Shown: positions 47,440-57,430 of the stretch, piece after piece
How the letters are laid out: every line of letters begins with the position of its first letter
Position numbering within the stretch: position 1 is the first letter of the stretch
DNA from: Opitutia bacterium
GTDB lineage: Bacteria; Verrucomicrobiota; Verrucomicrobiia; Opitutales; Opitutaceae
Direction: 5' to 3'
Assembly: GCA_947478395.1 (NCBI GenBank)
Contig: CANJVR010000001.1
Span: forward strand, 480,001 to 544,000
Length of the DNA: 64,000 bases
Position numbers and translations under genes: made by a program
Notes under the pieces: model-generated
Seen by the model: the letters and a program-made list of their open reading frames with translations, nothing else
Databases searched by the model: none
Told to the model about the DNA's origin: nothing

Positions 47440-47638
47440 CGCGCAGGGACGGCGCGGCGGCTGGACGCCAGTTAAAGCGCCTCGAATTGAAAGCCGGCTT
47501 TTCCCCGGCGGCGGCATCCTCCCGGCTCTTACAGTTGCGGCGGATGCGGACGCCGTTGAGGTCGCCATCGACGCGAAACGATAAGACCGCCTTCCGGTAC
47601 TTAAACCGGCTGACCGCAAACCTAGGTTAGAGGAGCAT
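47440..47638 (-). pseudogene. Decayed N-terminal fragment of a tyrosine integrase homologous to 56029-57276
   Basis: MLL*PRFAVSRFKYRKAVLSFRVDGDLNGVRIRRNCKSREDAAA aligns by eye to FTVTRFLNRNGVTSWRVDGRLHGLRIRRNFKTREEAGA; stop at codon 4 and a later frameshift. Confidence 0.8.
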
Positions 47639-47701
47639 GCTTAGGTTACCGCGCCAACTGGGCAACCTAGCTTCGGATCTTATCCCCTCGGCGGCGAAAA
47701 A

Positions 47702-47726
47702 TGGCGGAGAGGGAGGGATTCGAACC
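47702..47726 (-). repeat. att site: 25-bp duplication of the tRNA-Ser 3' end
   Basis: TGGCGGAGAGGGAGGGATTCGAACC is identical at 47702-47726 and 57341-57365. Confidence 0.95.
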
Positions 47727-47892
47727 TGAATCTCCGCTGCCAGCTAAGTTCCGGATTAACGCGGACTTAGTTGATGGTTAGTGGTTTAGAACGTGAAGAG
47801 AGAAGCAGATAAATGCGGAAAAGTGAAGGCAAAAACAGCGGATTGGACAACCTTTTGGCAACCTGATCGGTGGCAATTTACGCGGCTGTTGG

Positions 47893-48312
47893 TCACGTGT
47901 TCGCGACGCGATACGTTGGCTTGAAAAAGCCCACTGCACCTTTGCATTCGCGGAAGGGCAAAGGGCGGGCGTCTTCCAATACCCACCCCCACGGGGAGGT
48001 GTCTTTCCAGACCGAGCCATGCCGCCGCACGCAGGCCGTGATCGTGGCGACGCCGACGATGCCGCCGATGTCGTGCTCAAGCGGGATTTTGCGCCCGGCC
48101 CACGCGTTCCACTGCGTCCAGTCTTCTTCGTCGATGGCGGGGAACGTGGACGAGGCGTGGATGAGCACGCGTTTGGGCAACGTGACGAGGCGATAGGAGC
48201 GGTTTTCGATGTCCTTGATGCCTTGGGCAATCAGCCACGCCCACGGCTGGCGCACACTGAGGGCCATCAGGGATTTTTTGTCGTCGTTCCAGGTCGCGGT
48301 GCGGGAGTTCAT
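47893..48312 (-). CDS. ASCH domain protein
   Basis: ALSVRQPWAWLIAQGIKDIENR (GxKxxExR), LIHAS, GGIVG, KGAVGFF. Confidence 0.88.
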   Translation of the reverse strand: MNSRTATWNDDKKSLMALSVRQPWAWLIAQGIKDIENRSYRLVTLPKRVLIHASSTFPAIDEEDWTQWNAWAGRKIPLEHDIGGIVGVATITACVRRHGSVWKDTSPWGWVLEDARPLPFRECKGAVGFFKPTYRVANT

Positions 48313-48404
48313 GAGTTGTTGGAGATGGTGCCGACTTCGATCATATGGTCGGATCCAACGATATGATCGTCCGCGCTAACGGTCGATGTGAAGCAGGCAT
48401 GGTT

Positions 48405-51071
48405 CTACACCTTCGCCGCCGAATCCGTCCAGGCGTAGCCGTTGACCGGAAGCCCCACCGCCGCGAAGTGCTTCTTGCCGCACGCGATTTTCTGCCGCTC
48501 GTCCGCGTCGAGTTCTTCCAAGCGGGTCGCTCCTTTGGTTTCGCGCACGAGATAAAGGCGCGGCGGCTCGCCGGGCACTTCCTTCACAATCGCCCAGTCC
48601 GGATTGTAGGTGCCGACCGGCGTCTCCACTTGGAACCACCAGGGCAACTTCACAAAAAGCTTCACGTCCTGCCGCGCTTCCAGATCTTGCGCGAATTTGC
48701 GCTCCACTTCGGAATCGCACTCCACGCCGTCGTATAAACCGGCGCGGGGCGTCGTTTGCACGCGCGCGAGGTAGGGCTCCAGCTCCTTGTCGCGGAACCA
48801 CATCATTTCCCACGCGGCATCCGTGCCGCCGAGGCGCTCGTATTGCACGCCTTCAACCAGCAGGGCGCGTTTCTTCATCTCGATTTCGGAGGCGGCGATT
48901 TCGATCAGCCGTTGGGGATTGATCGCTGCCTCGTGGAGTCGGCCGCTCTCGCGCAAGATGGCGGCGAGCGTGGTGCGGGTGAGTTCGGTGCGGCGTTGCA
49001 GCTCGGTGAGGAAATCCGGCAGCGCCACCGGTGCCGCCACGCGGCCCGCGTCGTAAGTGCTGTGCACTTCCTCCACGACACCGTCGCGCGTGGGCTGGAT
49101 GGCCGCGCTCGCCACCGTGATGCGCCCGGCCTCGATCGTCTCGGGCCGCGCCCGAATTGCCGCCGCCGCCTCGGTTATAAGGCGCGGCGTCGCGTAGGTG
49201 ACGGCGTAGCGGGTGCGGTGTTTGATGCGCTCCCACAGGGCGAGAAACTCCGGGTCGGCGTCCCAGCCTTTGCGCAGTTTTAGCTTTTTGCGCTTCCGGG
49301 CGTTGTTGATGAGTCGCGCGTTGAAACGCACCCCGGCGTCCTCGAACTCGGCTTGCAGGCCGCGCGCGAAATCCTCGAAGGCTTCGCTCGCGATGAGCGT
49401 GAGCCGGTTGAGCGCGGCGTCGTGGCAACGCGTGCCGTCCTCGCGCACCGGCAGGCGCAGGCCGCGGCCGATGGTCTGGCGGCGTTCGCGCTCGGTGCCC
49501 ATCTCGCGCAGGGAGCAAATTTGAAACACGTTGGGGTTGTCCCAGCCTTCGCGCAGCGCCGAGTGGCTGAAGATGAACCGCACCGGCTCCTCCGCCGAGA
49601 GCAGGCGCTCTTTGCCGCGCATGATGAGCGCGAAAGCCTCGTCGTCGGCCTGCGTGCTTTTCTCCTTCGAGTCCACCGCTTGGCCCGCGCGTTCGGCGAA
49701 GTAGCCTTTATGCACCTGTGCCACTGGCGGCAGCGCGAGCGTGGAAAACTCCGGCGACACGCGCAGCGCCTCGTATTCGGCCTCGAACCACACGCGCACC
49801 TTGCCCTCCGCTTCCGCGTAGTGGGCCACGCGGTCGAGGAAGAAGAGCGACAACACTTTCATGCGCTGGCCGGCCGGGAGCTTCGCGATGGCCAGTTCCT
49901 TTTCAAAATGCCGGCGAATGGTCTGCCGCACTTGCACGCGCTGGATCGCGTCGTCGAGCGCGCCGCTGCCTTCGCCGAGGCCGAGGGAAAACTGGCCGAG
50001 GTCGATACGTTCGCGCCCCGGTTGGGCGTCGATGCCACGCACGAGCAGGCCGGCGTAGAGGGCGCGGTTGGCCTTGGCGGCGAGGTCGTCGCCGTGCTTC
50101 ACCGTCACGTCCTTGCGCTCGATGCCCTTCGCCGTCTGCACGTCGAGTTCCAGCTTGGCGGTGATGCCGCGCGCGCCGGGGATCGCTTTCTTGAACCGCA
50201 CGTAGGGTCGGTTGAAATCCCCCTCTTCGCGCACGCTGTCCACCTCGATGGCTTTCACGAGGCGCAGCTCGAAGGCGCGCACCGGGTCGAGTTGGTAAAC
50301 CAGATTGTAGGCGTATTTGTGGGTGGCGGAGTAGCGCAGCGTGCAGAGCGGATCGAGGCTGGCGATGGCGGCGCGGGCGCCTTCGCTTTCCAGATTCTGC
50401 GGCTCATCAAGGACGACCACGGGACGCGCCGCTTGCAGGAACTCGATGGGGCGTTGGCCGCCGAGGCGGTCGTGCGGGTTGTTGAGGATGTTCGACGCCT
50501 TGTCGAAGGCCTGGATGTTGAGCACCAGAATCTGCAGGCCGGGGCTGGTGTGAAAATGCCGGAGGCGGGAGACCTGCGCCGAATCGTAAACCCACGCCTC
50601 CAGCGGCGCGTTGTCGTAGAGCGCGCGGAAGTGATCCCGCATGAGGTCGATGCTCGTCATCACGCCTTCGCGGATGGCCACGCTGGGCACGACGACGATG
50701 AACTTGCGCCAACCGTAGCGGGCGTGGAGTTCGAGGATGGTGCGCAGGTAAACGTAGGTTTTGCCCGTGCCGGTCTCCATCTCGACCGAGAAGTGCGACC
50801 CGGCCCACGGTGTCTCGGCCAGTTCGGCGCGAGCCGTGTCGGCATGGGTGGCGAAGGTGCGGGCCTGCACCGCGCGGAGGTTGGCCTCCAGCCGAGTGGT
50901 ATCGAGATCGAGCCGGTTGCCCGCGCCCAGCTCGGTGATGAGTTGATCAACCGCTGCCAGCGGCTGCGCCTCAAACGCCCCGCCCGCCGGGCGCTGGCCG
51001 TCGAAGAGCTCGACCACGGCGCGGATGGCGTCGGCTTGGAAGGCTTGCGAGGGGTCGAACTGGATTTTCAT
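48405..51071 (-). CDS. res: Type III restriction enzyme Res subunit
   Basis: EMETGTGKT, LDEPQ, LRYSATH, FIFSHSALREGWDNPNVFQIC, QTIGRGLR, nuclease YNPDW...ETKG; start overlaps the RhuM stop (ATGA). Confidence 0.93.
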   Translation of the reverse strand: MKIQFDPSQAFQADAIRAVVELFDGQRPAGGAFEAQPLAAVDQLITELGAGNRLDLDTTRLEANLRAVQARTFATHADTARAELAETPWAGSHFSVEMETGTGKTYVYLRTILELHARYGWRKFIVVVPSVAIREGVMTSIDLMRDHFRALYDNAPLEAWVYDSAQVSRLRHFHTSPGLQILVLNIQAFDKASNILNNPHDRLGGQRPIEFLQAARPVVVLDEPQNLESEGARAAIASLDPLCTLRYSATHKYAYNLVYQLDPVRAFELRLVKAIEVDSVREEGDFNRPYVRFKKAIPGARGITAKLELDVQTAKGIERKDVTVKHGDDLAAKANRALYAGLLVRGIDAQPGRERIDLGQFSLGLGEGSGALDDAIQRVQVRQTIRRHFEKELAIAKLPAGQRMKVLSLFFLDRVAHYAEAEGKVRVWFEAEYEALRVSPEFSTLALPPVAQVHKGYFAERAGQAVDSKEKSTQADDEAFALIMRGKERLLSAEEPVRFIFSHSALREGWDNPNVFQICSLREMGTERERRQTIGRGLRLPVREDGTRCHDAALNRLTLIASEAFEDFARGLQAEFEDAGVRFNARLINNARKRKKLKLRKGWDADPEFLALWERIKHRTRYAVTYATPRLITEAAAAIRARPETIEAGRITVASAAIQPTRDGVVEEVHSTYDAGRVAAPVALPDFLTELQRRTELTRTTLAAILRESGRLHEAAINPQRLIEIAASEIEMKKRALLVEGVQYERLGGTDAAWEMMWFRDKELEPYLARVQTTPRAGLYDGVECDSEVERKFAQDLEARQDVKLFVKLPWWFQVETPVGTYNPDWAIVKEVPGEPPRLYLVRETKGATRLEELDADERQKIACGKKHFAAVGLPVNGYAWTDSAAKV

Positions 51072-52126
51072 GCGGCGGGGTCTTCGTCGGGCTTGCCGGG
51101 TTTCTTGGGCGGCAAGCGCTCGGCCTTCTTCAAGCGGCGCACGTGCTCCTCGAAATCTTTTTCCACCGGCGTCAATTCCGCCCCCGCAGCAAGCTGGCGC
51201 TGGCGGTATTTCTGCCACTCCCGTGCGGCCAGTTCTTGCGCGAGCTGGGCCGAAACCTTGCCGAGCCCGGGAAGGATGTCGCGGTCGTTGACCGTGAGGA
51301 AGGCATCGAGCTTCCGGTTCCAGTCCGCCATGCGCATGGTCTTCTTCGACATGGCTTGGAGTTCGCCGAAATCGATGAACTGCGAGACGAGGCGCTCCAG
51401 GATTTCCAGCTCCTCCTTGGTGAGGTAGTTTTTGGCCACGCCCACGTCTTCACGACGCGGTTTGGGGCCCTTCCACGTCATCAGCCCGGCGTAGGGTTTT
51501 TCGGCGCTGACGCGCTCGGCGATCAACTCGGCGGCGGTGTGCCCGTGCGTCGCCCAGTGGAGCTTGTTTTGCACGCGGGCGAAGAAGTGATCCGCCTCGG
51601 CCGTCTTACGGTCGTAGTCCACGCTGGTGGAAAACAGATCGAGCACCTTTTGATAAAACACCCGCTCTTCGAGCCGGATCGCCCGGATGCGCCGGAGCAA
51701 CTCCTCGAAGTAAGGGTTGCCCTGCTTCATGCGTTCATCGTCCAAGGCAAACCCCTTGAGGATATACTCGCGCAGGGTCTTGGTCGCCCAGATGCGGAAC
51801 TGCGTGCCGCGCGGCGACTTTACCCGGTAGCCCACCGAGATGATGACATCGAGGTTGTAGAACTCGATCTTGCGCAGCACCTCGCGCCCGCCCTCGGTTT
51901 GAACTGTTGCAAATTCTGCAACAGTTCCCGCCTGCTCCAACTCCTTCTCTTCGTAAACATTACTGATGTGGCGGGAGATCACAGACTTATCACGGTCAAA
52001 CAACTCCGCCAGCTGGTTAAGGCTCAGCCACACCGTGTCGCCTTGGAGAACGACATCCACCTTCACCGCGCCGTCTTCGGAGCGGTAAAAAATGATTTGG
52101 GATTCGGGGGGCGGTTGGTCGGGCAT
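51068..52126 (-). CDS. RhuM family protein
   Basis: VWLSLNQLAELF, YNLDVIISVGYRVKS, FRIWATKTL, VQNKLHWATHGHTAAELI, AKNYL. Confidence 0.9.
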   Translation of the reverse strand: MPDQPPPESQIIFYRSEDGAVKVDVVLQGDTVWLSLNQLAELFDRDKSVISRHISNVYEEKELEQAGTVAEFATVQTEGGREVLRKIEFYNLDVIISVGYRVKSPRGTQFRIWATKTLREYILKGFALDDERMKQGNPYFEELLRRIRAIRLEERVFYQKVLDLFSTSVDYDRKTAEADHFFARVQNKLHWATHGHTAAELIAERVSAEKPYAGLMTWKGPKPRREDVGVAKNYLTKEELEILERLVSQFIDFGELQAMSKKTMRMADWNRKLDAFLTVNDRDILPGLGKVSAQLAQELAAREWQKYRQRQLAAGAELTPVEKDFEEHVRRLKKAERLPPKKPGKPDEDPAA

Positions 52127-52138
52127 GGTGGCGAGCGC

Positions 52139-54040
52139 TTACACCGTTTGGAACTGGATGCCGTGGCTTTTCATTTCGAGCACGGTGTTCGTCTTGAGCT
52201 CGTCGTTGCCGTGGAAACCCACGTCGAGGCAGAGCACGCGCTTGGGCGCGAGGGCGATGACGCCGCGCAAGCCTTCGCGGGTGAGCGTGCGGCCGAGGCA
52301 GATGACGAGTGCGCCCGCCGCGAGCAGGTGAACGGGCTGACCCGCCACGGTGCGCACCTCCACCGGCGAGCCGAGGGTGATGCCGGGGTGGCCGCACTTG
52401 AGGAGGATCTCCGCGAGGAGGTCTTCATCGCTGCGGCCGTCGTGGACGTTGTGGGCCATGAGTTCGAGCTGCCGGGCGAGCCCCTCGCCGTCGCGCGGCG
52501 CGGCCTCGCCGTCCCACACTTTGAAGTTGGACTCGTCGAGACGGTAGGCACGAAAACCCTCGGCGCGGGTGCCGCCGGTGGCGAGGTCGGCCTGGCGGCG
52601 TGCGATCACCCGGCGCACGCGCTCGCGGGTGATGTCGGCGATGGTCGGGAAATCGGTGCGCCCGGTTTTTTCGGGGAGCTGCACGAGGATGAATTTGCGG
52701 TCGCCGCCGTCCTGGCGGTTCAGCTCCAAAACGGCCTGCGCCGTCGTGCCGCTGCCGCCGAAGAAATCGAGGATCAGGTCGTCGGGTTTGCCGAGCTGAA
52801 GCAAAGTTTGAAGTAGCGCCACAGGCTTTGGCGCTTGGAACAGACCCGGCTTCACCAAATCATCGAAAACTGCCTGACCCTTCTCGGTGTGGAAGTCTCG
52901 GTCGATGAAAATGGTTTTAAGCTTTTTGCGCACGACTTCTCCATCGGCGTTAACTGGTCTTGCTTTGCGATATACCTTCCATCGCCCGTTTACCTGCCGA
53001 GCGTAAAGGTCGGCGCTTTCGGATTTCACTTTTGGCTCACCCCATGTCCAGCAACCTTCAAACCCGTCTTCCCACTTGGGCCAAATTTCAATGGGAGTTT
53101 CACTGCTGTGCTCTAACGAAACTTTGCCCGTGCTGGGGTTCGCGAAAATAGCATACCAAAGTTTGCGACGATTATGTCGGCCAAACTGACGATGCGTATT
53201 GCGCAATTCTAGAGAGCGGAAGGCTCCCTTCTCGTCGAACTCATCGAACTCATCGCGGATTTGATCGGCTGATTTCTCCACTCCTAAATCCTCTTCGAGA
53301 TACCCCTTGGAATATATGAGAACTAAATCATGGGTTCGTGCGAAATGAGGATCCAGGACACGACCTTTGGGGTTGGTTTGAACCGTTACCTGCGCCACGA
53401 AATTCTCCTCCCCGAACACCTCGTCCATGAGCAGGCGGAGGTTGTGGACCTCGTGGTCGTCGATGGAGACGAAGATGACGCCGTCGTCGCGCAGGAGATT
53501 GCGGGCGAGGGCGAGGCGCGGGTGCATGAGCTTCAGCCAATCGCTGTGGTAGCGGCCGCTGGTCTCGGCATTGGTCGAGAGCGTTTGCCCGGTGATTTCT
53601 TTGTAGTGGGCCACGCCGGCGCGGAAATCGTCGGGGTAAACGAAGTCGTTACCGGTGTTATACGGCGGGTCGATGTAGATGAGTTTCACCGCGCCGGCGT
53701 AGGCCGACTGGAGCAGTTTGAGGACGTGCAGGTTGTCGCCCTCGATGATGAGGTTTTCCGTCGCATCCCACGCGACCGAGGCGGCGGCATCGGGTCGCAA
53801 GGTGCCGTGACTGGGGGCGAGCGTCTCGCGCAGGGCCTCGGCGCGACCGGCGTAGGAGAGCCCGTAGCGTTCGGGCGAGGACGATACGGCGGCGGCGCCA
53901 ACCAGCTCGGCGAGGCGGGCGGGCACGAGTTTACCCTCGGCAAAAGCGCCGGGCAGAAGCTCGCGAAGACGAGCGAGGCGCTCGGCGGCGAGATCGGGTG
54001 AAGTGAGGGGCAGGCGCGCGGGCTTGGCAGAGTCACTCAT
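52139..54040 (-). CDS. mod: Type III R-M Mod subunit (amino-methyltransferase, probably N6-adenine)
   Basis: IEGDNL, IYIDPPYNTG, PKPV, LDFFGGSGTTA in beta-class order; upstream of res. Confidence 0.93.
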   Translation of the reverse strand: MSDSAKPARLPLTSPDLAAERLARLRELLPGAFAEGKLVPARLAELVGAAAVSSSPERYGLSYAGRAEALRETLAPSHGTLRPDAAASVAWDATENLIIEGDNLHVLKLLQSAYAGAVKLIYIDPPYNTGNDFVYPDDFRAGVAHYKEITGQTLSTNAETSGRYHSDWLKLMHPRLALARNLLRDDGVIFVSIDDHEVHNLRLLMDEVFGEENFVAQVTVQTNPKGRVLDPHFARTHDLVLIYSKGYLEEDLGVEKSADQIRDEFDEFDEKGAFRSLELRNTHRQFGRHNRRKLWYAIFANPSTGKVSLEHSSETPIEIWPKWEDGFEGCWTWGEPKVKSESADLYARQVNGRWKVYRKARPVNADGEVVRKKLKTIFIDRDFHTEKGQAVFDDLVKPGLFQAPKPVALLQTLLQLGKPDDLILDFFGGSGTTAQAVLELNRQDGGDRKFILVQLPEKTGRTDFPTIADITRERVRRVIARRQADLATGGTRAEGFRAYRLDESNFKVWDGEAAPRDGEGLARQLELMAHNVHDGRSDEDLLAEILLKCGHPGITLGSPVEVRTVAGQPVHLLAAGALVICLGRTLTREGLRGVIALAPKRVLCLDVGFHGNDELKTNTVLEMKSHGIQFQTV

Positions 54041-54144
54041 TTGTAAAAGCCGATAAAACAGACGGATGACCGAGGCCGTCAACGCTGCGCGCGGGCGAAT
54101 TTGCCGATGCATCAAAACGCGCGTGAATGGCGGTCGTTGCATCG

Positions 54145-54950
54145 CGCCGGGGGCTAGGCCCGGCGCAAGGCCGGAGCGGGAGCGCAGGCCGGGCGCTTCG
54201 CGACGGCGGCGGAGATCCGCGCTAGCGGGTCGGAGACGACGCCGCGAGGCGTAGGGGCAACCCCGACTAAGTCGGGGGCGCAGCCGCGACGTGTCGAGGC
54301 GGAGTGCCGGGGCGCGGGGGGCGGAGGAAGCGCCTTTTCACGCCGGAACGGTCGGCGTCGGCTCGGAGCGCAGCTCTTAGGCGTAGCGGAGAGGCGACGG
54401 CGTCCGTGGAGGCGTTTCGATCAGGACGTGGAATGTGGGTGACCGCGCGCAGCGCCGCCCCGGCCTGACCGGGGCGAGCGCGCGGGCACCGCGAGAGCCG
54501 GGCCATGCGGACCCGGCCGTAGGTCGCGCCAGCGACCGGAGCCGCAGGCCGAGACGTGAGCGCAGCGAACGCGAGCGGGCACGCCGACCCGCCGCCACGG
54601 CGCAGAGCGTGAGCGAACGCCGTGGTTTGCGCGGCGGTTGAGGCGAGCCCGGTAGCCTGCCGGGCGCAGCGGGGTCCCCGCCGGTCTGAACAGGACGGGC
54701 GCGACTCAGGCGTCGGGAGCGTAGCGGACGACGGCTGTGACGCGACGGCGCGGGCCCACGGAGCGCCGCTTCGCGCGGGCCACTGCACCGCGCAGGCCGT
54801 CCCCGGCGGGGTTGCACTCCAGAGGACGGAGCGGCTTGGCCCGGAGCGCGCGAGCGCGGAGGGCTGGGCGGGCCGGAGGCGCGACCACCGCGGAGGAGCA
54901 AGCAGACGGCGTGACAGGCCGGAGGCTCGGCGCAGGGCTGGCGCGACGTG
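54145..54950 (+). other. Non-coding, hairpin-dense region with strand-biased GCG(C/T)AGC mini-hairpins (putative single-strand origin/primosome site or structured RNA)
   Basis: Seven GCGYAGC on + strand in 54278-54725 and many adjacent stem-loops; overlapping ORFs are low-complexity R/A/P/G. Confidence 0.55.
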
Positions 54951-54999
54951 TGCCGCTTGGTTGATTGGGCGGTTTTTCGCGGGCGATTTCGACTCGCCG

Positions 55000-55195
55000 A
55001 ATACCACCGCGTGTCCCACCGGAATACCACCCGGTATCCCGTCCCCTAGCACCTGGGACACGAACCCGGGTGCTAGACCGGGACATATCCCGGGATCTAT
55101 TCTTCTAAAGAAGAAGGGGGAGAGCATCGCTATCGCTCTCCCCACTTCTTTCGGCGGGACAGACAAACCGCGCGGCGTCGAGGTCGGTGTCCCAG
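55000..55195 (+). repeat. Origin-like module 1: GGGAYA/TRTCCC repeats + 21-bp core + hairpin
   Basis: Core CTATTCTTCTAAAGAAGAAGG at 55097-55117; repeats at 55011, 55034, 55055, 55080, 55085, 55187. Confidence 0.8.
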
Positions 55196-55233
55196 GCGGC
55201 GGCATGGCGTGGGTTGCGCCGTGTGCGCGCCCG

Positions 55234-55380
55234 GAGTCACCTGACACTAAGCGTCACTTTTGCCGAGGTGACGCTAAGGGCGACACTAGCGACTGACACT
55301 ATTCTTCTAAAGAAGAAGGGAGCGAGCTACGCTATCGCTCGCCTCCCTTCTTTCGACGGGACGGAGCCGAGCCGCGCGCG
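55234..55380 (+). repeat. Origin-like module 2: YGACRCT repeats + 21-bp core + hairpin
   Basis: Core at 55299-55319; repeats at 55242, 55250 (inverted), 55269, 55281, 55294. Confidence 0.8.
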
Positions 55381-55816
55381 TCGTGCGGAGTGGTTGGCTA
55401 CGTTGTGGCGCGAGGTGGCGCGGCGCGACGTGGTTGGCCTTGGGTAACCCACGAAGGACGGCGAGGCGGCGTGGGTGACGAAACGAGGTAGGGCGCAAAC
55501 TGCACCTGTCTTCACCTGCTTGCATCTAGCTACTCAATAGCGTTTTGCGGGCGATTTAAGCCGTCGATTTCGAGGCGGGCGGCGTTGCGGCAACCATGTA
55601 TCCCCTGCCTCCTTTGCGTGGCGTAAAACGAACGCGCGGGCCATTGGGCGCGATTCTGGAAGCCGGGTTGCGGGCGCGATTCGTTGCGTCGGTTTGAGGG
55701 TTGGGTGGCAGGCGTCGCGGTGCACCACGGCGGGTGCGTGGTGGGGTTTGCGCGGTGTGTGCGACGGGACGCGGCATGGGGGCGGCGTGGCCTGGCTGGG
55801 TCATGAACCACGGCGG

Positions 55817-56022
55817 CGCGCGCGGCTTTTCCGTTTGCCCGTCGAAAGAAGGTGGGGGAGGAGCAAAGCGATCTCCTCCCCACCTTCTTCTTTAGAAGAA
55901 TAGCACCAGGTGCTGCACCAGTCTTAGCACCACCCCCATTTCACTGGTGCTTAGAACTGGGGTGGTGCCGGGAAAAACCACCTCGGCGCCACCCTGGTGC
56001 TCGCGGTGGTGCCGGGTGGCGC
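55817..56022 (-). repeat. Origin-like module 3 (inverted): TGGTGC/GCACCA repeats + 21-bp core + hairpin
   Basis: Reverse-complement core at 55883-55903; repeats at 55903, 55915, 55927, 55945, 55963, 55995, 56007. Confidence 0.8.
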
Positions 56023-56028
56023 GGGAGG

Positions 56029-57276
56029 TCACGCCGCCCGCGAAAGCGGCGCGGTTTCGGCAGAGCGGTCACACGTGACCGGATCGACGTGGGCGGCTGC
56101 GGGTTGGACGTGCATGGCGGGCGCGGTCGAGGCGGGGACGATGTTGAAAAACGCCTCGGCTTCGGCGGGCGTTTTTAGGTCGAGGTAGTGTTTGCGGATG
56201 ATCGACTCGGAGTTGCCCGCCTGGAGCGCGGCCTCGCCCATCGAACGATACTTGGCGACGTGCATCGAGATGAACGTGTGCCGCATGATGTCGTGCGAGA
56301 GCGTGAACTTTTCCGCGACGGCGGCGCGGGTGTGTTGCAGGTTGGCGGGGATGATCGGGAAGCGGTCGAGCGGGTAAGCGCGGAGCCACGCGGCGAGGTT
56401 GGGCTGGATGGTGACGGCGCGTTTCATGCGGACTTTCGAGACCTCGGGTTCGATGAGGATGACGCCGGTATCAAGGCGCACGTGTTCGGGGCGGAGTTTG
56501 AGGATCTCCCCCGTGCGCACGCAGGGGCGGATTCCTGCGAAGAGGGCGAGGGCGAAGAACGGCACGAGCGAGCCGCCGTCGATCTGTTCAACGTGGTGCA
56601 TGAGTGCGGTGGCTTGCGCGGCGCTGAGCGTGGTCGCGGAGCCGCGCCGGTGGGCGATGCGGAGGTGGGGGACTTTTTCGAGGGGGTTGGCGGCGACCCA
56701 GTCTTGGCAGAACGCGAATTTGAAGAACGTGAAGAGCACGCCGCGACGGTTGTTAAACGTCTTGGGCTTCGGGTTGCCCAGCTGGCAATGCGCGGCAAGG
56801 GCTTCGCGGGAGAGCGTGGAGAGCGGCTGGCCGGGGAAGGCGGAGACGAGGTTTTCCAGGCGGATGCGGATGTCCTTGAGTTGGCAGGTGGAGAGCATGC
56901 CTTGCGCCTCCTCTTTTTTCTTGGACGCGAGATAAGCGGTGACGGCGGCATCGACGGTGATCTCGCGCTCGGGGGCGCGGTAGTTGGCGAGGGCGTAGTC
57001 GAGGTAGAACGCGAGGGGCTTGGGCGCGTCGGCGAGGCGGCGAAACGCGGCCTCGGATTGGCGGAGCTGGTCGTCGGTGAGGAAGGTGGAGGCGCTGCGG
57101 ACGTTGCTGGCGGCTTGCGCGGCCTTGGCTTCGAGGGCGGCGCGTTCGGCTCCGGCCTCCTCGCGGGTTTTGAAGTTCCGGCGGATGCGGAGGCCGTGAA
57201 GACGGCCATCGACTCGCCAAGAGGTGACGCCGTTGCGGTTGAGAAACCGGGTAACGGTGAATGCGGACTGCGGCAT
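56029..57276 (-). CDS. int: Tyrosine recombinase / site-specific integrase
   Basis: AGIRP (R), SKV (K), HDIMRHT (HxxR), KHY (Y); N-terminal arm-binding-like domain; next to the tRNA att. Confidence 0.9.
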   Translation of the reverse strand: MPQSAFTVTRFLNRNGVTSWRVDGRLHGLRIRRNFKTREEAGAERAALEAKAAQAASNVRSASTFLTDDQLRQSEAAFRRLADAPKPLAFYLDYALANYRAPEREITVDAAVTAYLASKKKEEAQGMLSTCQLKDIRIRLENLVSAFPGQPLSTLSREALAAHCQLGNPKPKTFNNRRGVLFTFFKFAFCQDWVAANPLEKVPHLRIAHRRGSATTLSAAQATALMHHVEQIDGGSLVPFFALALFAGIRPCVRTGEILKLRPEHVRLDTGVILIEPEVSKVRMKRAVTIQPNLAAWLRAYPLDRFPIIPANLQHTRAAVAEKFTLSHDIMRHTFISMHVAKYRSMGEAALQAGNSESIIRKHYLDLKTPAEAEAFFNIVPASTAPAMHVQPAAAHVDPVTCDRSAETAPLSRAA

Positions 57277-57315
57277 GTGTTAGGTTGCCACGTCAACTGG
57301 GCAACCTAGCGGGCG

Positions 57316-57339
57316 AAAACTCCTCGTCAGAGGAGAAAA
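57316..57339 (-). terminator. Short hairpin with T-run downstream of tRNA-Ser, supplied by the island
   Basis: Minus strand CTCCTC-TGAC-GAGGAG-TTTT. Confidence 0.5.
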
Positions 57340-57340
57340 C

Positions 57341-57430
57341 TGGCGGAGAGGGAGGGATTCGAACCCCCGGTGACCTTTCGGCCACACCTGATTTCGAGTC
57401 AGGCGCGTTAGACCACTCTGCCACCTCTCC
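57341..57430 (-). tRNA. tRNA-Ser (CGA)
   Basis: GGAGAGG...CCTGA-CT-CGA-AA-TCAGG anticodon arm, long variable arm, GGTTCGAATCC T-arm, encoded CCA; 90 nt. Confidence 0.97.

Follow-up and report, generated by a model that had tools for sequence, protein, structure and literature searches.

A defence island of an Opitutia bacterium without a replicase gene carries three origin-like modules matching different classes of helper elements

The closest described parallels to the locus reported here, a 9.6-kb defence island in a 64,000-nt stretch (hereafter the window) of a freshwater Opitutia bacterium, come from phage satellites and from staphylococcal plasmids that mimic origins of transfer (oriT). 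According to the core definitions in the available text of PMC10085698, the characterised integrative phage satellites compared here, namely phage-inducible chromosomal islands (PICIs), capsid-forming PICIs (cf-PICIs) and PICI-like elements (PLEs), encode their own replicase. In excerpts on Staphylococcus aureus pathogenicity islands (SaPIs), the C-terminal winged-helix domain of the replication protein Rep is described as binding iterons just downstream of rep (PMC9371898; 10.64898/2026.10.17.759575). A review, as excerpted, also mentions satellites that need helpers to replicate and a second-tier dependency of SaPI3 (PMC11389934). The oriT mimics of the pWBG749 family are described, in the text at hand, as several subtypes of a cis site on non-autonomous carriers, with a conserved core, variable specificity sites and a specificity set by few residues of a DNA-binding protein, features which the island and its presumed helpers appear to share, here from sequence co-variation (PMC8136818). 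A literature search that left most subscription papers and supplements outside found nothing on Rep-less bacterial satellites with several origins, nor on the Opitutaceae elements described here.

The island lies in GenBank assembly GCA_947478395.1 (contig CANJVR010000001.1, positions 480,001 to 544,000 of the forward strand) and spans window positions 47702..57365, between two copies of a 25-bp attachment (att) duplication. A first-pass annotation had proposed a Rep-less island with helper-specific origin mimics and had listed an integrase, Mod, RhuM, Res and an ASCH-domain protein; these five genes, all on the minus strand, are indeed its whole coding content. The block under study is the non-coding DNA between Mod and the integrase (54041-56028), which contains no credible gene under a codon model, only a marginal 61-aa frame. 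A protein-coding block was rejected on four long open reading frames (ORFs) without a Pfam match and on many inter-island indels that are not multiples of three. Folding z-scores of -2.5 to -7.2 were obtained in windows across the modules described next, and the tRNA alone reached the gathering score in an Rfam scan.

Within this block, a 21-bp core occurs exactly at 55097 (+), 55299 (+) and 55883-55903 (-), while no further copy was found in the 3.3-Mb genome with up to 4 mismatches allowed. All three cores are preceded by repeats particular to them and followed by a hairpin. The class A/A2 module (54975..55165, plus strand) carries RTCCC and AATACC iterons and is 88% identical over 179 nt to helper locus L021, the class B module (55233..55365, plus strand) carries GTCAC iterons, and the class C module (55836..56015, minus strand) carries GCACCAC iterons. 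The classes were assigned by gapped comparison with 15 helpers, as in an ungapped alignment a 1-nt offset puts module C in the wrong class. The module at 55097 scored 49-106 against A/A2 helpers and at most -2 against others, the module at 55299 scored 47-65 against class B helpers and at most 26 against others, and the module at 55903 scored 26-49 against C/C2/D helpers and at most 0 against A and B. Judging from these scores, the island holds one module per class, A/A2, B and C. The helper-specific mimics first proposed were therefore borne out as far as three modules sort to three replicase classes, but the helpers turned out to be one family of tail-less prophage-like elements rather than integrative and conjugative elements (ICEs) or plasmids.

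The core was detected in 4 of 80 integrase loci, 7 viral-contig stretches, 10 of 401 family genomes (the source included) and 13 metagenome stretches, and the loci are of three kinds. In the first, a single module lies 99-135 nt behind the stop of a gene for a primase/AAA_25 helicase of about 668 aa and before a RusA-like gene, an arrangement shared by all 22 distinct exact-core modules that have a resolvase gene behind them. Single modules beside a rep gene in other elements had been anticipated at first pass, and they do lie directly behind the primase-helicase of these replicase-encoding helpers. The second kind is a reduced element that has one module and a helicase lacking the primase part (L002, and also L128, which is truncated at its contig end), and the third is a three-module block directly behind an integrase 95-97% identical to that of the window (L001, L133 and L140). 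Four exact-core matches in low-GC unrelated sequence (L084/L087, L086 and L092) were considered chance and dropped before module counting. Helper modules are built of inverted iterons, a palindromic AT-rich core and a hairpin. Among 6 further helicases of 45-61% identity from a protein search, all 6 have iterons and a compensated palindrome, and 5 have the hairpin too.

The iteron class tracks one helix near the C-terminus of the replicase. xxIRQP occurs with ACCAC, HTIRHP with GCGCCAC, xTIRRP with GTCAC, and xY(I/M)RKS with RTCCC or AATACC. Among 11 full-length replicases, giving 55 pairs that are not independent, the similarity of two origins follows the identity of the C-domains (rho 0.76) but not that of the N-terminal parts (rho -0.02). 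For instance, the replicases of L083 and L082 are 98% identical N-terminally and differ in class; those of L083 and L110 share 86% of the C-domain and differ in helix and class, whereas L083 and L020 share only 70% of it and agree in both. The last two pairs extend beyond simple linkage. A protein search of the 401 genomes, which is free of exact-core bias, gave matches in 9 and yielded five new replicases. The four with D(N/S)IRQP each have a compensated palindrome and iterons of the ACCAC type, to which three add the hairpin, and the fifth, 34% identical, follows the same plan with other repeats. In an AlphaFold model of the replicase C-terminus (pLDDT, predicted local distance difference test, about 80), the order is helix-helix-helix-strand-strand with a two-strand wing, and the variable helix is the third; it is thus predicted to belong to a C-terminal winged-helix domain. 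Foldseek returned only RecA-fold and primase-helicase neighbours for the replicase, whereas neither the ESM Atlas nor a sequence search of the PDB was informative.

As the case draws on position, architecture, co-variation and the SaPI precedent, we infer that the modules are replication origins. The helper loci resemble the pri-rep-ori arrangement of SaPIs and PICIs, as far as the sources at hand describe it, with the putative origin immediately downstream of the primase-helicase, short, partly inverted iterons and a possible C-terminal winged helix; an inverted pair and an AT-rich segment right behind the replicase ORF are present as in a SaPI-type origin. They also show several specificity subtypes with a common core, each matched to a variable DNA-binding protein through sequence co-variation. 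Unlike SaPIs, the helper helicase is a RecA-fold AAA_25 protein, not an SF3/MCM (superfamily 3 or minichromosome maintenance) one, and iterons were observed at just one flank of the AT-rich core. In IncQ plasmids (RSF1010), the RepA/RepB'/ssi system likewise pairs an AAA_25 helicase with a primase at hairpin sites, in a plasmid that has a separate RepC initiator. The island is a Rep-less and capsid-less integrative element, and we think it rather probable that its modules serve as origins for replication in trans by any of the helper classes entering the cell. Begomovirus betasatellites are also Rep-less and trans-replicated by several helpers, but they are plant single-stranded DNA (ssDNA) satellites with one origin.

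The island resembles SaPIs and PICIs in being integrated at a tRNA gene, about 10 kb long, equipped with defence cargo and, as proposed below, dependent on a helper for packaging (PMC10085698, as excerpted). It has an integrase and an att duplication, but, in contrast to them, it lacks a primase-replicase, a regulator, terS and any gene for capsid morphogenesis, and its putative origins are three, of different specificity. Lacking a replicase, regulator or terS, it does not belong to the PICIs under the core definitions excerpted from PMC10085698. The first-pass statement that no excisionase, primase or packaging gene is present was upheld: tblastn and further searches found no excisionase, primase-helicase, terS/terL, portal or capsid gene of the helper family in the island or in the 98.8%-complete assembly. 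The HTH_17 (helix-turn-helix) gene of the helpers also has no match in the source assembly (G000). No regulation module (alpA/merR/stl) was found in the island, and no gene lies between 54041 and 56028.

Conservation of the block in related islands, which had been set out beforehand as a check, was observed in L001, L133 and L140, with other cargo or att sites. Neither of the outcomes named at first pass as refuting, a block missing from related islands or a core missing from autonomous elements, was thus borne out, as replicase-encoding elements carry the core. In three island comparisons, 10 of 612 positions differ within core and hairpin versus 428 of 5175 in the rest of the block, and core and hairpin are kept although the reading frames are broken. 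L140 lies at tRNA-Ser(GGA) and has PLD-SNF2 cargo; its first module has pure A2 iterons and its third leans to C2, with the block frame unchanged. In L001, the sequence diverges right after the pre-terS motif described below. Within the helper integrases, those of the four islands cluster with L002 (100/98), which fits reduction from a helper via an L002-like stage, and the island integrase descends from the helper family. The replicase of L002 (L002:1360-2526) keeps the AAA and C-terminal domains, has no primase and stands with one origin module. Such a reduced element is a possible intermediate that supplies origin recognition and borrows priming. In run X9 of another study, the same integrase, array and cargo have different flanks and a replaced middle part of Mod, and the same element evidently occurs in another chromosomal context. 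Its origin block there has one matching core plus 1.37 kb of unmatched DNA, with a spacing like that of L002.

These comparisons also bear on the view that the island is an inert remnant, a deletion or recombination product of several helpers integrated at the same tRNA with the modules as passengers. Tandem integration at tRNA-Ser is common here (an integrase remnant at 47506-47620, and tandem elements in G298), an intermediate exists in L002, and module C has a 1-nt deletion, all of which would suit a remnant. We nevertheless regard it as unlikely, since nothing but modules of about 190 nt remains and the helicase and resolvase genes that flank them in helpers have left no trace, one module per class is present with two of them inverted, core and hairpin are about five times more conserved than the rest, and the layout persists across different att sites and cargo.

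The island also carries a copy of a motif that precedes terS in the helpers (54073..54168, minus strand, tightest at 54087-54127). Window positions 54073-54168 are 72-79% identical to the DNA immediately upstream of helper terS (assigned by PHROGs), and the motif lies within 150 nt in most of 25 distinct terS upstream regions. In the island, it precedes the cargo operon. The motif may be a packaging site or a regulatory site. An order-wide search with it gave weak matches only. A resemblance to the very end of the HK97 record, 49 nt ahead of HK97 terS, was put aside as a lead only, as it covers only the final 10 nt and the helper head genes are Mu-like. Nearly all helpers (25 distinct loci) have TTGACA 12-13 nt ahead of the start codon of terS, too near for a normal -35 box.

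If the modules are origins, a helper would enter or be induced and its excisionase would help the island integrase to excise the island. The helper primase-helicase would then load on the module that matches its class, and the island circle would be packaged by the helper terminase on recognition of the pre-terS copy. In this way, the type III restriction-modification (R-M) cargo could spread by hitching and protect the host. A fuller version, which we put forward tentatively and as possible, is a gene-free 'master-key' hitcher that outsources excision, replication and packaging, maintains one origin per major helper class, retuned as the winged-helix code drifts, and also holds a cis element of DnaG-XerD-Rhs cassettes.

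Several observations weigh against replication in trans. No helper of this replicase family was found in the source assembly (G000) or in G128, and the contig depth over the island is about that of its flanks in runs X1, X3 and X6, possibly the source samples, with no amplification seen. A flank-like depth is expected without a helper, yet it lends no support. No attP joint was listed either, in assembled contigs of a kind in which attP circles do not show. Most helper modules were found through the exact core, and the invariance of the core is therefore partly ascertainment. The co-variation of domain and origin is partly linkage because the two are adjacent. Structural matches of the C-domain are weak, with mostly winged-helix neighbours at Z 3.3-5.0, and module C, compared with 13 helpers, lacks 1 nt in its proximal spacer. 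The pre-terS motif, in turn, could serve as a promoter or regulator site. Finally, in every close helper (22 of 22) the module can also be read as an ORF of 72-95 aa, its ATG overlapping the end of the helicase gene and its stop overlapping the next ATG.

This last point leads to the suggestion that the modules, rather than being origins, come from a small gene or a transcription/translation-coupling element as its fragments and act as RNA-level or regulatory signals, and a decayed gene had been named at first pass as what would overturn the proposal. The ORF is there in the close helpers, which touches this condition in part, but it is absent in the distant ones, where stops occur in the equivalent frames and the DNA symmetry is kept by compensatory changes. 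Moreover, the peptide reflects in its N-terminal half no more than the iteron repeats, and the window modules have no start ATG, two of them facing away from any gene. We consider a gene fragment very unlikely; the ORF may rather be a coupling frame laid over a DNA signal.

The absence of extra depth over the island is also what a decoy would predict, in which the modules and the pre-terS copy remain chromosomal, where they titrate or misdirect a helper's replicase and terminase upon invasion, or trigger the cargo, while the island itself is unreplicated. The three classes cover the main helper specificities, the cargo is of defence type and the iterons were retuned in L140, each of which agrees with such a role. 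On the other hand, a single copy per class would be a weak sink against a replicating invader, the whole module is conserved, core and hairpin included, rather than the iterons alone, and the integrase and both att arms are kept in an element found in different chromosomal contexts. A pure decoy therefore seems rather unlikely to us, although the roles of decoy and hitcher are not mutually exclusive.

Conjugative transfer was the analogy first drawn for the block. No relaxase or type IV secretion system (T4SS) gene lies beside any module in the helper loci read, so that no link to oriT or ICEs was found, and the analogy does not hold as an actual link. A plasmid search was uninformative, with 61 short Ralstonia matches of 40-47 nt that were discarded as unrelated, and annotated phages gave no match. 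In contrast to the pWBG749 mimics, the modules are predicted replication origins of phage-like helpers, and an integrative island would need the helper for replication itself. The island is not an oriT mimic, but would work like one at the level of replication.

The 'mini-hairpin array' of the first-pass annotation proved to be real but of other affiliation, a structured non-coding element of about 830 nt (54136..54967, minus strand). Seven C(GNA)G hairpins with 3-bp stems lie in 54170-54970, whereas shuffled sequences have a mean of 1.2 (maximum 5 in 200 shuffles) and any of 4133 genome tiles of 800 nt has at most 5. The element is present in 80 of 401 family genomes and often adjoins genes for XRE, a DnaG-like protein of about 1000 aa, an XerD-type recombinase and Rhs; it belongs to an element family separate from the helpers, the DnaG-XerD-Rhs cassettes. 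In nine copies, 41 of 115 predicted pairs changed on both sides, compared with 19 in shuffles and 8-17 in slid controls, a supportive count and not proof, as the structure was derived from the same alignment. The element has no Rfam match and was seen beside Rhs genes in L226, L227, L232 and L237.

As an alternative to oriT mimicry for conjugative helpers, it could be argued that this element is the main mobility signal, served by DnaG-XerD-Rhs cassettes. A full-length copy lies in the island, and in L226, L227 and L232 a full copy stands before XRE-DnaG-like-XerD and a partial direct copy after XerD. Apart from a zinc-finger match, however, the source assembly has no large DnaG-like gene of such a cassette, and the oriT variant meets the missing relaxase and T4SS genes and the short, unrelated plasmid matches noted above. 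Both variants appear highly improbable.

The helpers are integrative elements of about 20 kb at tRNA-Ser and tRNA-Glu with Mu-like head genes. In G096, G298 and G038, the gene order from the left is integrase, HTH_17 gene, two genes of unknown function, Sak4, exonuclease, single-stranded DNA-binding protein (SSB), helicase and primase-helicase, followed by the module, the RusA-like gene, two ORFs, about 1.5 kb of non-coding DNA, terS and terL, and then by a Mu-type portal, a Mu-type protease, scaffold/decoration, the major head protein, two ORFs of about 65 aa and cargo. PHROGs and Pfam scans of 24, 16 and 26 selected helper ORFs found terS, terL, portal, protease and capsid, but no tail or head-tail connector family among them; most far att ends were not located. 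Behind the capsid gene there are only the two ~65-aa ORFs, without family matches, and no head-tail adaptor or connector. Of the 401 family genomes, 34 have a match to the capsid protein, with >=80% identity in 16; the source assembly is not among them. Loci L117-L122, L109-L116 and L126 (G096, G298, G038 and G332) belong to this family, with several elements of different origin classes per genome.

Similar to cf-PICIs, as far as PMC10085698 was available, the helpers combine an integrase, a regulator/excisionase, a primase-helicase, terS, terL, portal, protease and capsid, with tail genes not detected. They differ from cf-PICIs in the Mu-like head genes, the Sak4/exonuclease/SSB/helicase/RusA module, the length of about 20 kb and the lack of a detected head-tail adaptor or connector. 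The tail-less Mu-head helpers may form a group not described before, either cf-PICI-like or of tail-less viruses. In a second helper type, another primase-helicase pair accompanies the same head module. Behind the helicase of this type, an origin-like stretch with ACCCC repeats and a CCCCTAT..AGGGG palindrome was observed (L007:16305-16460, L015, L040, L155 and L158), of which no copy was seen in the window. A hairpin-rich non-coding region of about 1.5 kb precedes terS (L120:1907-3423) and is rich in C(TTC)G loops; equivalents in L007, L015, L040, L114, L115, L121, L155 and L158 are 70-93% conserved across both helper replication types. This region could be a large structured RNA or ssDNA signal, and the island array is not alignable with it except for the last ~100 nt and short motifs.

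If replication in trans is correct and the helpers need a tail donor, the island would be a satellite of satellites. SaPI3 also represents a second tier of dependency among satellites, but its dependency, in the review as excerpted, concerns induction, while that of the island would concern replication and packaging (PMC11389934). Multi-subtype mimicry is documented for transfer origins, and a Rep-less multi-origin island would extend it to replication. It would also explain how integrase-plus-defence islands without visible mobility genes move, and such islands are missed by gene-based satellite finders. The helper set represents a natural residue-to-iteron code confined to a handful of positions within one helix. 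It also hints at the reason for the diversity of helper origins, either escape from hitchers or co-residence of several helpers in one genome (G096 and G298).

As for the remaining features, the left att core (47702..47726, minus strand) is the 3' end of tRNA-Ser and identical over 25 bp to 57341-57365, the right att core, which is part of the tRNA-Ser(CGA) gene (57341..57430, minus strand). This tRNA gene adjoins tsf-rpsB, and the same site is used by helper L118. Tandem CAACCT repeats (47846..47864, plus strand) share their hexamer with a palindromic arm-type or regulatory site upstream of int (57280..57310), which is kept in many integrase loci. The repeats are likely integrase arm-type sites of the left att arm, a region common to other integrase loci. 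The tyrosine integrase (415 aa; 56029..57276, minus strand) has no excisionase gene behind it, whereas most related integrase loci have an HTH_17-type gene there; the 80 closest loci are nearly all titled Verrucomicrobiota, chiefly Opitutaceae genomes. Outside the left att, positions 47506-47671 contain a 5' integrase remnant (47506-47620) with its own palindromic arm site, evidently left over from an earlier island at this tRNA.

The cargo comprises Mod, a type III methyltransferase of 633 aa (52139..54040, minus strand; PADLOC MTase_III, E 2e-160), a RhuM-family protein (51068..52126, minus strand; PADLOC candidate PDC-S05), Res, a type III restriction subunit of 888 aa (48405..51071, minus strand; PADLOC REase_III, E 1e-255; Pfam ResIII and RE_endonuc), and the ASCH-domain protein (47893..48312, minus strand; Pfam PF04266 at E 0.0015, under the cut-off; phrog_3193). 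Mod and Res are adjacent full-length ORFs, as in a type III R-M system. The middle part of Mod (52786-53395) has a lower GC content and is swapped for 539 other letters in run X9; it is likely the target-recognition region, with domain exchange between related elements. The first-pass annotation had further described a phased-tract segment, but the helical phasing of its A/T tracts is not significant, the best period (11.25) being equalled by 17-30% of 500 shuffles in three windows, although the segment itself, a conserved spacer (55480..55700, minus strand), is about 70% identical to L002 and present in L128 too. Lastly, L001, L004, L015 and L019 are high-GC Opitutaceae-type loci in records titled Akkermansia muciniphila, titles that look mislabelled.

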